A stretch of DNA of 64,000 bases, taken from positions 480,001 through 544,000 of the forward strand of contig OZ242365.1 of the NCBI GenBank assembly GCA_965208905.1, read 5' to 3'. The notes under the pieces are model-generated. The model was not told the DNA's origin and made no database searches. It worked only from the letters and a program-made list of their open reading frames with translations. How positions within the stretch are numbered: position 1 is the stretch's first letter; every line of letters begins with the position of its first letter. This document shows positions 48,529 through 60,350 of this stretch, in pieces. This DNA comes from Nitrosopumilaceae archaeon (GTDB lineage: Archaea > Thermoproteota > Nitrososphaeria > Nitrososphaerales > Nitrosopumilaceae). A program made the translations under genes and the position numbers.

Positions 48529-49755
48529 TTATTTCCAGTATTCGCTTCTTACTATATGTGTTAGAATAGCAGATCTTATTTCAACAAGAATATCTTGTCT
48601 GTCGTCTTCTGGTGTGTTTGTCAGTATTGTTTGTAGTAATTCTAGGTACTCTGTGACTGTGGGATGTTTCATGAATTGATCTATGTCTATTGTTGTCGTT
48701 GTCGTGTTTGTTGTCAGAATAAGGTTTGTGTTGACTTGCTCTTTTGTATCAATATCTTTTGCAGAAGCACCGCCATAAACAATAGTATTATCAAACTTGT
48801 TTGTGTTATTTGTATCAATATCTTTTGTGTGGTCTATGTAGTCATTGTCCTTGCCTAATATTTTCTGCTCGTTTATTGGCTCTGTCATACGTGGCACATT
48901 GATGTTACGTGCCTCCCAATAATCTCTAACATCATTAGCGTGTACTGTGTTCATTATGTGGTCTGGGTCTATATGGTGTGGTAATCCTATAAGATGCCCA
49001 AATTCGTGGGCTATTGTGTATTCTATCGCTGGCGCGCTTAGTAGTGTCTGTTGCTTACCTACATTTACATCTGTAAATAGTTGAATTGTACATTGTTCCT
49101 CATCAAATAGGCATCCTGGAATAGCGTTCCCCATTTGTCTACCGTCTCCTATGTGTTGTTGGATTACTATGTCCGCCTGTAATCTACTGTCTGTATAACT
49201 GAATGTTATATTGTTGATGTCTGCCCATTTGTCAAAACCTGCCTCTACGCCTGTTGTTACTATATTTTTGTAATTTGGTGGTAATTCTCTGTCTCGTGGT
49301 AAGTCTATTATCGTATATTTGTACTCGTCTTGTACTGTATTTACGTACCAATATCCGCATAGGCATTCGTGATGGGCTTGATATTCTTCTTCTGTTTTAT
49401 TTATACTACTCTTTACATTGTTAAGATATCTTTCCTCAGTCTCTTTATTCCCACATTCATCTCTTCGTTGATTAAGGGCGTTTATTTCATTTATTTTTTC
49501 TACTGATGGTGCAGTCCAACCATGAGAAATCCTAAATAGTGTATTTATATCACATGTTAGCCAGTGGCTCTCTACAAAACCATCATACCTATAATGTGCT
49601 TCTATGTGGTCTTTTGCCTTTTGTGTTTCCATTACAAAATTTCCTTCTGCAGTCTCTATCCATATGTGATTGTCTATATGGTCAGCATAGGCTGTCATGA
49701 CTGTTGTTAGTGCTATTGTTGTTACCATTGCTATTGTTATTATTGTATTGTTCAT
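48529..49755 (-). CDS. Secreted matrixin-like (metzincin, M10-type) Zn metalloprotease
   Basis: Signal peptide ending AYA; HEFGHLIGLPH followed by Met-turn HIM. Confidence 0.88.
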   Translation of the reverse strand: MNNTIITIAMVTTIALTTVMTAYADHIDNHIWIETAEGNFVMETQKAKDHIEAHYRYDGFVESHWLTCDINTLFRISHGWTAPSVEKINEINALNQRRDECGNKETEERYLNNVKSSINKTEEEYQAHHECLCGYWYVNTVQDEYKYTIIDLPRDRELPPNYKNIVTTGVEAGFDKWADINNITFSYTDSRLQADIVIQQHIGDGRQMGNAIPGCLFDEEQCTIQLFTDVNVGKQQTLLSAPAIEYTIAHEFGHLIGLPHHIDPDHIMNTVHANDVRDYWEARNINVPRMTEPINEQKILGKDNDYIDHTKDIDTNNTNKFDNTIVYGGASAKDIDTKEQVNTNLILTTNTTTTTIDIDQFMKHPTVTEYLELLQTILTNTPEDDRQDILVEIRSAILTHIVRSEYWK

Positions 49756-50075
49756 TGTGGTCTCTCCTGTCCTTTTCCTTCTTTCATGTTTTTTTCTATA
49801 ATAAGTGCTCCCTTCATTAATCCAATTTCATGACTGTTGTCTATTGCTTCTTGGACTATACGTTCTGGGCTTATTCCTTTGTGCTTTCCTATCGCCTCTA
49901 CTTGTTTGTATAATTCGTTACTAATTTCTATAGGTTTGTATGTGCCGTATTCCGCTTTTATTCCTTCTCTGACTATGTCGTCTGTTTTTTTGTTGCCTTG
50001 TGCTTTGTATTCTTCTAGTGCTTTGTGTGTGTCTTCTGTTATCATTATCTCTCTTGTTGCTTTCTCTTTTGTCAT
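49752..50075 (-). CDS. Tandem ribbon-helix-helix-like regulator
   Basis: Two units (EIMITEDTHKALEEY..DDIVREGI; PIEISNELYKQVEAI..ERIVQEAI); ATGA overlap with the protease. Confidence 0.6.
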   Translation of the reverse strand: MTKEKATREIMITEDTHKALEEYKAQGNKKTDDIVREGIKAEYGTYKPIEISNELYKQVEAIGKHKGISPERIVQEAIDNSHEIGLMKGALIIEKNMKEGKGQERPQ

Positions 50076-50290
50076 TGTTGTTGCTTGTGCTTTGTGTGTA
50101 TTATGTTATTTGTCCTTCAAACTAATACCCACAGTCTCTAAATTCCTGTGCTTGTGGGGAGGGACCAGCAATCGTAAATATTGGGAATTATATACAAAAG
50201 TACACAACCCCAATTCTGAGAGTTAATGCCTGAACCACGGATCGCGTCCATACAACTCCCCTTAAATACTAGCATACCGTATTATATATC

Positions 50291-51642
50291 ATGATACGGG
50301 TAGTTAAGGTACCGCTACGGAGGGATGTGTTGTTTGCAGAGTGGGCGCACCGCACGAATCATGCGTCAAGATATGTGTACAACCGCGCCGTATCAGAGTA
50401 TTTGTTTGGTGGCGAATATAGGAGAGGGTGGTAGTGGACATCCTGCAGCCCTTCAAACTGCCGGGCAAGCTGGATTTTACATCAGGTATGCTGGACGATG
50501 ACTACCATACATATGATTTTGGGCCATCAAAGAATGTATTAAAGTACGGCATGTTCAAGCAGCTTACGGAGTGGCGCGCTGAACATGCATGGGTATCTGA
50601 CTTGCCTATGGTGTTTGGCAGGGGCGCCATACAAGATGCCTCTATCGCATGTAGAAGAGTTGTAGATGACAACTCCGGCCATGCGCCATACCGCCGCAAA
50701 GACGGCCGCATCATACTATACAGTGTAAATCCGCCTGTACGAAAAGGTGAGCACACCATACATATCCCCGGATATGGTATTGTAGAGACCGCCAAGCCCA
50801 TCGATGTATCGTGGGACATGCGGTCATTCAAGATAGTTGATGTCACCAAACGGGTGGACAAGCATACAAAGCCGTCAGACCACATGTTTGAGCTGCATAT
50901 TGCCGTGCGTGTACCGGTCGAGCCACACCATAATACAGGTGTAATGCGTGGCGTCGATGTGGGCGGCAAGCACCTGGCAGTTACTGTCGACACAAATGGC
51001 AATGTTACAATACACAACACCCGCCATAGAGCAATCCTGCGGGAGATTGACGCGCTAAAGAGTTTGCGCGACCGCAAGACACGGCATGGCCGGAAGTGGC
51101 ATATATTGAATGACCAAATAAAGCGGCTATACAGGAAGGCCAACAACATAGCCGCGAACACGATAAATCAGACGATTGCGCAGATAACTAGTGGTGTGGA
51201 CGCAGTCGTGGTCGAGTCGCTCTCCGTAAAGGACATGACCACACATGGTGGGAATTACAAACGCGCTATGAACCGTTCAATGCGGGAGAACCATGTTGGG
51301 GAGTTCCTGCGCAAGCTTGCGCAGTGGTGTGAGATACACAACATACCGCTGTTGGGGGCATCTGCCAAATACACGAGCCAGACGTGCCATGTGTGTGGTC
51401 ACGTAGACTCAGAGTCGCGTATATCACGCGACAAATTCATTTGCACAAATTGTACCAGGGTATTCCACGCGGATGTCAATGCCGCCTGGAATATTCTGTA
51501 TAGGGCGGCGGGGAACGTCGTCCTAAGACGGCCGGGGCACAAGGAGGGCTACAAGCCAACACCTTCTATGCTCCACTCCATACAACGAAGTCGTCAGAAA
51601 AGGCATGAGTGTACAGCCGAGGCTGTGTACTTTTGTATATAA
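50291..51642 (+). CDS. tnpB: RNA-guided endonuclease TnpB (~450 aa), 1-bp frameshift near 50420-50430
   Basis: N-terminal MIRVVKVPL...SRYVYNRAV from ATG 50291; in ORF 50428-51642 RuvC-I GVDVG, RuvC-II VVVESL, YTSQTCHVC...CTNC, RuvC-III HADVNAAWNIL. Confidence 0.9.
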
Positions 51643-51647
51643 TTCCC
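51495..51647 (+). ncRNA. Putative omegaRNA scaffold overlapping the tnpB 3' end
   Basis: Position between RuvC-III and element end, as in known TnpB loci; 9-bp hairpin with two G-U pairs at 51609-51630; boundaries inferred. Confidence 0.5.
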
Positions 51648-51676
51648 TAAATATTTGGGTGTATTACATATGAGTT

Positions 51677-52147
51677 GTGGACAGTCATCATAAAATCAAT
51701 TGTACTGTTGATGCACTATATGGTGCTGGCGCCTCGGCATACATCCCCTCAGATATAACAATGACGTATTATCGGACGGGTCGTATTCGTGAGGTGTATC
51801 ATAATGGCACGCTCTTGTGCACTCTGCGTATAGATGGGGGACTTGCCATCACTCTGGACTTTGCGCGTATACTACTGCAGTGTAAGGATTTTGATGAGTA
51901 CTGTATAGAAGTAGACGATGATGCAGCTCCCTTTGTTGCCGAAGGCAAGTCGGTCTTTGCATCACATGTAGTACGATGCGGCAAGTATGTCCGGATATCA
52001 TCAGATGTGCCTATATTGTATAACAATGATGTAATAGCCGTGGGGCGGGCGGTCTTGTCTGAACCAATGATTGCAGGGTCCCGTAGGGGCGTAGTGGTAC
52101 GAGTCAGGGATAGTTTAAAAAGAAGAGGCCGCATATTCTCAACATGA
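51677..52147 (+). CDS. PUA-domain protein (archaeosine TGT C-terminal-like)
   Basis: TGRIREV...LR.DGGL; GKSVFASHV; AVGRA. Confidence 0.88.
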   Translation: MDSHHKINCTVDALYGAGASAYIPSDITMTYYRTGRIREVYHNGTLLCTLRIDGGLAITLDFARILLQCKDFDEYCIEVDDDAAPFVAEGKSVFASHVVRCGKYVRISSDVPILYNNDVIAVGRAVLSEPMIAGSRRGVVVRVRDSLKRRGRIFST

Positions 52148-59995: not shown

Positions 59996-60350
59996 GGTTC
60001 CTCCCGCAAGGACGGATACTATGTGTCACATCTCAACTATCTTTTTAAACATGTAAACCGTACTGTACGCTAATGGTACTACGCACATACACATTCGGCG
60101 TTATATTCCGTAAAGGGTTCAAGAAGGAGATGTTGGCCAGACAGGCCAGCATGGACAGGTACGTGTATAACAAACTAGTGGAAACCTTCAAGGAAGAATA
60201 TCGTAGAACAGGTAGAGTAAATGCGACGCAGGGTACCCTGAGAAACGTCAAGCACAGACCGGGGAACGAGATGCTCTATGCACCGTCGTCCTCTGGCGTG
60301 ACGTGTGATGTATTGTGGATGCGGGAACCCCCGTGCTTGCAGTAGGAACC
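59996..60350 (+). mobile_element. 355-bp internally deleted tnpB element with 20-bp TIRs and 8-bp TSD
   Basis: Left ggttcctcccgcaaggacgg vs right reverse complement ggttcctactgcaagcacgg (17/20); flanks ggatataa (59988-59995) / ggatatga (60351-60358). Confidence 0.82.
60073..60345 (+). pseudogene. tnpB: Truncated tnpB (N-terminal helix region joined to the 3' end of the element)
   Basis: MVLRTYTF...LARQA..DRYVYNKLV matches the OrfB N-terminus; no RuvC motifs. Confidence 0.7.

Follow-up and report, generated by a model that had tools for sequence, protein, structure and literature searches.

Introduction

TnpB is thought to pay its way in transposons by re-cutting the scarless donor joint of HUH and serine transposases. 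Other settings are on record as well: Fanzors, the eukaryotic homologues of TnpB, were reportedly placed in DDE transposons by Bao and Jurka in 2013, the ISNwi1 group of the IS1595 family carries passenger genes, and transposase-less cassettes of that family are said to have been described by Siguier et al. in 2009. Here we analyze a 64,000-nucleotide stretch of the genome of a Nitrosopumilaceae archaeon, an ammonia oxidizer (contig OZ242365.1, positions 480,001 to 544,000; the whole stretch is called the window below), in which tnpB is the sole gene between the ends of a 1465-bp element that has both terminal inverted repeats (TIRs) and an 8-bp target site duplication (TSD). The window element is very probably a non-autonomous IS1595-family cassette, moved in trans by IS1595 transposases encoded elsewhere in the same genome.

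The closest precedents are prokaryotic. In the available parts of Altae-Tran et al. (2023; PMC10691335), six branches of TnpB associated with DDE transposases are reported (DDE-1 to DDE-6), all with inverted terminal repeats, as well as solo TnpBs with nearly identical ends that transposases move in trans; IS630 is named in the main text. A 2026 review (PMC13565253), as far as its main text goes, names ISL2, IS630, and IS1031, terms DDE association rare, and raises the question of how TnpB benefits a DDE transposon, which leaves a break anyway. The word "IS1595" is in the main text of neither paper, and the supplements of PMC10691335 may list such cases; in the literature on TnpB together with IS1595, judged by title and abstract, and in that on ISNwi1, we found no description. 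For the IS1595 family itself, the accessible text of PMC12561309 reports that ISApl4 makes A/T-rich 8-bp repeats. The architecture, TnpB in a DDE transposon with solo copies moved in trans, is already published (2023); the present case has an IS1595 shell and an archaeal host. A first-pass annotation of the window, made from its letters alone, had described DDE capture of TnpB as known mainly from eukaryotic Fanzors; with the prokaryotic DDE-TnpBs published in 2023 (PMC10691335, main text), that claim of rarity was too high.

A tnpB Cassette with IS1595 Ends

The genome that holds the window (G000) is a single contig of 2.21 Mb, 99.6% complete. The features of the window element and its borders are as follows (strand in brackets, with a point for features that have none).

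50171..50174 (+): ATCG directly 5' of the left TSD; the G at 50174 may be the final base of a transposon-adjacent motif (TAM); also present in the G005 empty site
50175..50182 (.): left TSD copy, TAAATATT, 8 bp, read from the sequence; a single copy in empty sites
50183..50206 (+): left TIR, GGGAATTATATACAAAAGTACACA, 24 bp; the outer 13 bp, GGGAATTATATAC, are common to IS1595 transposase elements
50262..50268 (+): TTAAATA, a TATA-box-like motif ~26 nt upstream of the ATG at 50291, kept in 15/15 copies
50291..50434 (+): N-terminal 47 codons of tnpB (MIRVVKVPL...), in a frame that differs from the main open reading frame (ORF)
50428..51642 (+): main tnpB ORF, 404 aa, with RuvC triad and zinc finger intact; ends with TAA (51640-51642) within the right TIR
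51408..51647 (+): conserved structured 3' region, candidate omegaRNA scaffold, overlapping the tnpB end and the right TIR
51609..51630 (+): hairpin, 9 bp, GUGUACAGC-CGAG-GCUGUGUAC, with its 3' arm inside the right TIR
51624..51647 (-): right TIR, 24 bp, the exact reverse complement of the left; codes the last TnpB residues (VYFCI) and the stop
51648..51655 (.): right TSD copy, TAAATATT; with the flank beyond, the putative guide sequence

According to a repeat finder, the inverted repeat continues to 32 nt (91%), and by our own estimate a perfect 24-nt inverted repeat combined with a perfect 8-nt direct repeat within 1.5 kb has a chance probability below 1e-8. The first-pass annotation had described the tnpB gene with its RuvC motifs, the perfect 24-bp TIRs and 8-bp repeat, the stop codon in the right TIR, and the lack of a transposase, and in this it was correct to the base. 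The G+C content of the element is ~0.50, against ~0.36 in the left flank.

Four strong matches to PF12762 (DDE_Tnp_IS1595) are present in G000, and all four genes lie inside elements of 2131-2837 bp with GGGAATTATA at both ends and 8-bp TSDs. The partner transposase (313 aa) scores 176.7 bits against NF033547 transpos_IS1595 (cut-off 75) and 138.3 bits against PF12762; its zinc ribbon, PF12760 (Zn_ribbon_IS1595), reaches 24.8 bits, just below the 25.4-bit cut-off. All four DDE elements of G000 have identical outer 10-13 bp (GGGAATTATA/GGGAATTATATAC), as do the elements of G005 (which represents a sister species) and G008, and PF12762 genes also occur in 5/5 other genomes with the terminus. Neither a Y1 TnpA (PF01797) nor a serine recombinase (PF00239) was found in G000, in searches that were both positive in control genomes. 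Because the cassette encodes no transposase, it can be filed in the IS1595 family only as a dependent cassette; the IS1595 transposases would recognize the shared GGGAATTATATAC termini and cut A/T-rich DNA with an 8-bp stagger. The end sequence GGGAATTAT presumably fits the end consensus of the ISNwi1 group.

In the IS1595 elements of G000 and G005 that were inspected, the second gene is an N6/N4 DNA methylase (N6_N4_Mtase) fused to an HNH nuclease (G000 1043578-1046414 and 1770047-1772736, in the latter apparently split into two frames; G005 L074 and L075). A further locus, G005 L077, is a methylase-only cassette with the same ends and the TSD AAAGTTTT.

Copies and Relatives

G000 holds 15 full-length copies of the element at 79-100% identity (family A), plus fragments. 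Perfect, all-different 8-bp TSDs flank 11 of the 15, the TSD of one contains one mismatch, and three lack a TSD; a further copy, the sixteenth, is interrupted by another insertion sequence (IS) and likewise has a perfect 8-bp TSD. Family-A TSDs are 85% A+T in a genome of 54% A+T. In all 15 copies tnpB lies at the same place and its stop codon falls inside the right TIR. A search of G000 with the TIR gave 57 matches at up to 5 mismatches, and ~70 ORFs, fragments included, match the TnpB profile. As a side observation, the duplicated target TAAATATT resembles the TATA box of a PUA/TGT_C2-domain gene whose GTG start at 51677 is ~26 nt downstream; since the insertion duplicates TAAATATT, this gene retains a TATA-like box. 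Many other TSDs of the window-element family are TATA-like.

The same first 13 end bases, with a stop in or just inside the right repeat, recur in the Y lineage (1420 bp), in the X lineage (1639 bp), and in a single cassette at 913845-915398, whose proteins are only 25-30% identical to the window TnpB; five TnpB lineages, only 25-30% identical, have this common layout. Miniature inverted-repeat transposable elements (MITEs) of 115-430 bp with the same terminus are also present (e.g., 341419-341790, 658457-658571, and 759618-760047). Beyond G000, the 13-mer terminus was found in 14/151 genomes of the Nitrosopumilaceae family (a reversed control was near zero), with several to tens of copies in 8/9 genomes from this genus and also in G015 and G126, and the cassette layout is repeated in G006, G001, G015, G126, G007, G002, and G005. 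Relatives at E ≤ 1e-25 were found in 9/251 genomes of the class, from two genera only, and a search with a four-sequence alignment returned 7 loci, all in Nitrosopumilaceae.

In a quick tree of 75 TnpBs, the GGGAATTAT-shelled proteins need 7 label changes, 6 of which are forced by well-supported branches; two rows whose label came from a single end are doubtful, so that five well-separated GGGAATTAT-shelled clades remain. It should be noted that an exact-seed TIR scan had labeled 21 TnpBs "noTIR", and that alignment of copies gave imperfect TIRs in 3/3 families re-examined. The intermediate lineages are not TIR-less, and the tree depicts switching between shell types rather than TIR against IS605 ends. 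The pattern speaks for repeated exchange between TnpB modules and shell types.

Three further sets of loci in G000 are recorded here. Three solo right-end remnants of 165-205 nt (1493807-1494010, 2197132-2197329, and 1694379-1694542) consist of the structured 3' region and the right TIR only, starting at element positions 1274-1310 and lacking the left TIR; they could be relics of guide RNAs that stand alone, or just truncated copies. A pair of identical X-lineage cassettes of 1639 bp (1455264-1456902 and 2049469-2051107) has no matching TSDs, and both cassettes adjoin TIR-like sequence belonging to other elements, suggestive of nested insertion or of inter-element recombination. Cassettes with TnpB, ends of the TGGGCTG... 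type, and TSDs of 8 bp (e.g., GTTCAGAG and TAGACTAA) lie at 250699-252021, 2209868-2211190, and 376983-378293; their terminus resembles the GGGGCTG end given for IS1595-family ISApl4 in the accessible text of PMC12561309. Patterns of 12 bases for the TGGGCTG ends, allowed 3 mismatches, were too loose for use.

Empty Sites and Age of the Insertion

A 47-kb contig of the DNA run X9 joins 50174 directly to 51648, skipping 1473 bases; 8 letters can be assigned to either side of the joint, and 3/453 positions in the right flank of the contig are unlike the window. G005 also has an empty site, ..GGGACCAGCAATCG TAAATATT GAGGCAC.. (left flank also given as ..CAGCAATCG), where homology runs over 1353 bases at 96.7% on the right and over only 32 bases on the left. 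The two empty sites mean that the insertion was precise and is younger than those splits. A joint from 50201 to 51629 in an X5 contig was rejected as a TIR-to-TIR assembly effect. In the comparison of 49752-50150 with G005 L114, homology ends 32 nt left of the insertion site, and the region, with a small ORF at 49752-50075, has been rearranged or replaced in one of the genomes.

The nearest paralogue of the window copy is 94.5% identical, and no family-A pair exceeds 98.2%, a divergence that would fit conservative cut-and-paste movement or import. The "recent movement" of the first-pass annotation holds relative to near-identical DNA that lacks the insertion, but the nearest paralogue is at this greater distance. 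Its larger proposal, a TnpB re-housed in an IS1595-type DDE transposon and mobilized in trans, is supported by the shared termini, the TSDs, and the partner transposases: the TIR recurs across the genome, other copies carry their own 8-bp TSDs, DDE transposases with the same terminus exist in the four IS1595 elements of G000, and sites with a single TAAATATT were recovered both from X9 and from G005.

State of the tnpB Gene

The main ORF matches Pfam OrfB_IS605 (38.8 bits) and Cas12f1-like_TNB (59.7 bits), and the RuvC residues D223, E309, and D395 and the zinc-finger cysteines (CxxC..CxxC) are invariant in 6/6 aligned lineages; an intact paralogue scores 113.9 bits against NF040570 guided_TnpB (cut-off 100). 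The TTAAATA at 50262..50268 would, going by archaeal promoters in general, have a promoter role. The first-pass annotation rightly recorded all three RuvC catalytic motifs and overlooked a frameshift: one T is deleted after 50420 in the window copy (GAATATA-GGAG against GAATATATGGAG in 14/14 other full-length copies), which puts 47 codons into another frame and leaves the 404-aa ORF without its N terminus, so that this copy has no intact tnpB reading frame. The extra T is seen in contigs of DNA runs; as these possibly derive from paralogues identical over that stretch, an assembly error and a real frameshift are indistinguishable in the window copy. Owing to the frameshift, the window copy is probably dead for TnpB.

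The family as a whole is in better condition. The tnpB ORF is intact in 14/15 full-length copies, and 91 pairs of paralogues give a mean dN of 0.094, a mean dS of 0.483, and a median dN/dS of 0.21. We count the purifying selection as shown, and as part of the best explanation the intact copies would encode a working nuclease.

A One-Sided Flank Motif and a Structured 3' Region

For the analysis of flanks, cassettes were oriented by tnpB and only those with perfect 8-bp TSDs were kept (n = 27, from eight genomes and several TnpB lineages). The -1 base on the tnpB-upstream side is G in 23/27 cassettes, including 13/13 counted family-A copies of G000, whereas the mirror C on the right side is found in 4/27 (Fisher p = 3e-7 against the left G). 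Elements without tnpB but with the same termini (n = 15) have G/C on 11/30 sides, which differs from the cassettes at p = 3e-4. A second shell type behaves in a similar way: ~20 GGTTCC-type end pairs, 1.5-1.6 kb apart, are present in G000, and 12 of them contain tnpB and have a perfect 8-bp TSD; positions -3 to -1 are T in 10/12, T in 12/12, and R (A/G) in 12/12, on the tnpB-upstream side only. For this shell no transposase was found in G000, where the weaker PF12762 matches have no such ends nearby.

Two observations concern this second type of shell. A tnpB that appeared to be in cis with an rve-type transposase (G000 805876-808440, GGTTCC ends) was rejected as a case of a nested IS, since the composite lacks a TSD, 14 copies of the transposase at 98% identity or more are found elsewhere, and the first 49 residues of the transposase arise by read-through out of the cassette. 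The IS itself (HTH_21 + rve + rve_3; 807230-808393 and 13 other places, with the one copy nested in the tnpB cassette) has 98-100% protein identity over its 14 copies and so has recently been very active. In the window, a second tnpB-cassette family, with GGTTCCTCCCGCAAG-type ends, is represented at 59996-60350 by a deletion derivative of 355 bp, which retains the left 5' region together with ~110 nt at the right; the TSD is GGATATAA/GGATATGA (one mismatch), and TTG stands before it.

The TSD is variable and hence cannot itself be the TAM; we infer that the flank motif is the TnpB recognition motif, adjoining the target in the empty site. An omegaRNA would then read out across the right TIR, with the TSD plus the right flank as the guide, and the target of that guide would be uninterrupted only in the empty site, directly after the short motif (..W-N-G for the window lineage). 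Sites that are empty or vacated would be cut by TnpB, and the element would come back through recombination with a filled copy; a filled site, which agrees with no more than the first 8 bases of the guide, would be spared. We put this chain, from a guide across the right TIR through cutting of empty or vacated sites to restoration by recombination, a little short of even chances, and the RNA ends, the TAM function, and homing would all be parts of it.

The 3' region has the properties that such an RNA would give. The consensus fold of the last 240 nt has 51 pairs across 15 sequences from four genomes; 12 pairs are changed on both sides, against 5.5 ± 1.7 in shuffled alignments (0/500 reach this value) and 1-4 when partners are slid. 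In addition, dS is 0.33 in the last 80 tnpB codons and 0.54 before them. The fold and the lowered dS together are what an overlapping omegaRNA would be expected to produce. The hairpin at 51609..51630 survives G-U and loop changes in variants, and the G006 copies have an analogous stem of other sequence.

Weighing the Explanations

Taken as a whole, the best explanation has in our estimate a probability of roughly 0.8, with the IS1595 cassette as its firmer core and the homing reading of TnpB as its weaker part. Several observations count against it. Only the outer 13/24 TIR bases are common to the transposase-bearing elements, so recognition by the IS1595 transposase is assumed; the acting enzyme would be one or another of the IS1595 transposases. 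None of the IS1595 transposase elements contains a TnpB ORF (0/4 in G000 and 0/4 examined in G005). The -1 G is missing in 2/3 Y-lineage copies, in L056, and in L111, as well as in two of the three family-A copies that have no TSD, and with one strong base the candidate motif is short against 4-5 in known TAMs. As for the guide RNA, the compared sequences are related and coding, so that the covariation statistics overstate the case, the 3' region has no credible Rfam match, and the hairpin is followed by UUUUG before the TIR end, a possible terminator that would leave no guide. Metatranscriptome contigs, which may hold DNA and show neither ends nor strand, were the only data of that kind and were not used as support; one X1 contig ends at 51647, and another extends from the tnpB 3' end across the right TIR and on into sequence that flanks the copy at 1972621-1975198.

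On the question of how the element came to be and what moves it, one refuting possibility named in the first-pass annotation was an ordinary IS200/IS605-type (IS1341-group) tnpB element inserted once into a pre-existing MITE, to which the TIRs and TSD would then belong. MITEs with the same terminus do exist, but none matches the cassette beyond ~18 nt of its end, and the constant position of tnpB in 15/15 copies, always with the stop in the right TIR, its repetition in five lineages of 25-30% identity, close homologues with the same ends in other species, and the lack of a Y1 TnpA in G000 make a one-off insertion extremely improbable. We also consider it improbable that the cassettes are moved by TnpB itself or by an unrecognized enzyme, with the shared terminus reflecting descent and having no present function. 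The short shared portion of the TIR would suit this idea, as would the GGTTCC shell family, which has ~20 end pairs and no identified transposase, the rve-type gene beside one copy being a nested insertion. Against it, the TSD length is the same, cassettes, MITEs, and methylase cassettes all retain the terminus but vary in the inner TIR, and terminus and PF12762 co-occur in 5/5 genomes; moreover, TnpB is not known to have transposase activity.

A weightier challenge concerns the flank motif, which could reflect target-site choice by the transposase, with end differences inside the 24-bp TIR orienting the complex and TnpB as mere cargo or acting otherwise. G/C is slightly raised beside the non-tnpB elements (37% of sides against a 23% background, p = 0.06; 9/15 have it on one side or both), so that part of the preference may come from the transposase, and the two shell families with different motifs presumably use different transposases, so that the motif follows shell and TnpB lineage alike. 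Yet 6/15 non-tnpB elements have G/C on neither side, as compared with 4/27 cassettes in which the left G is missing; the Y lineage has the same 13-bp terminus and lacks the G in 2/3; the TIRs are perfectly symmetric over 24 bp; and the dN/dS of 0.2 indicates that TnpB matters to the element. On balance we regard target-site choice as a doubtful account of the motif, though by no means a negligible one.

Beyond the window element, a broader proposal can be put forward tentatively, and we would hold it at less than even odds: in this archaeal lineage the whole TnpB population may have left HUH and serine transposons for DDE shells, with the nuclease coupled through a TSD-plus-flank guide and a lineage-specific TAM (..G for GGGAATTAT-shelled and TTR for GGTTCC-shelled cassettes), cutting only empty or vacated sites and so restoring or spreading a cut-and-paste element. 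The many copies in G000 suggest a way in which nuclease and transposon may cooperate. The genome amounts to a natural experiment: independent insertions number in the dozens, one shell type houses at least five TnpB lineages, further shell types are present, there is no TnpA, transposase-bearing and cargo-free elements with the same ends serve as controls, and close relatives have empty sites. A concrete prediction of TAM identity and guide position follows from the one-sided flank motifs. If true, a TSD-plus-flank guide with a lineage-specific TAM would explain, for prokaryotes, what OMEGA nucleases do for DDE transposons; should the prediction fail, the locus remains a clear, well-documented example of the architecture published in 2023.

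Comparison with Known Systems

The DDE-TnpB branches in the available parts of Altae-Tran et al. (PMC10691335) resemble the present cassettes in that inverted repeats belonging to a DDE transposon enclose TnpB, whose gene has its 3' end near the transposon end, and the solo TnpBs described there have, as here, ends common to transposase-bearing elements, from which movement in trans was inferred. They differ in that tnpB was never seen in cis with the transposase here and that the Nitrosopumilaceae host has no TnpA at all; the same parts of that paper do not discuss how a flank motif relates to the TSD in prokaryotes. With the IS1595 family, for which the accessible account is that of ISApl4 (PMC12561309), the elements share short, perfect TIRs starting with GG and A/T-rich 8-bp duplications, and the partner elements of G000 and G005 share DDE_Tnp_IS1595 with a zinc ribbon and passenger genes (DNA methylase-HNH); the cassette departs from that family in having no transposase and an RNA-guided nuclease as cargo. 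The IS1341 group of IS200/IS605 likewise has tnpB as its only gene, many copies, and a need for a transposase in trans. According to the main text of PMC13565253, however, IS200/IS605 elements have neither TIRs nor TSDs, whereas the window element has both, in a genome with no Y1 TnpA. The likeness to Fanzors in DDE transposons, as they are treated in the same review, is that an RNA-guided nuclease sits in a TIR/TSD transposon, with the guide expected over the TIR and the TAM tied to the insertion site; the present cassettes are prokaryotic, and their candidate motif lies just outside the TSD.

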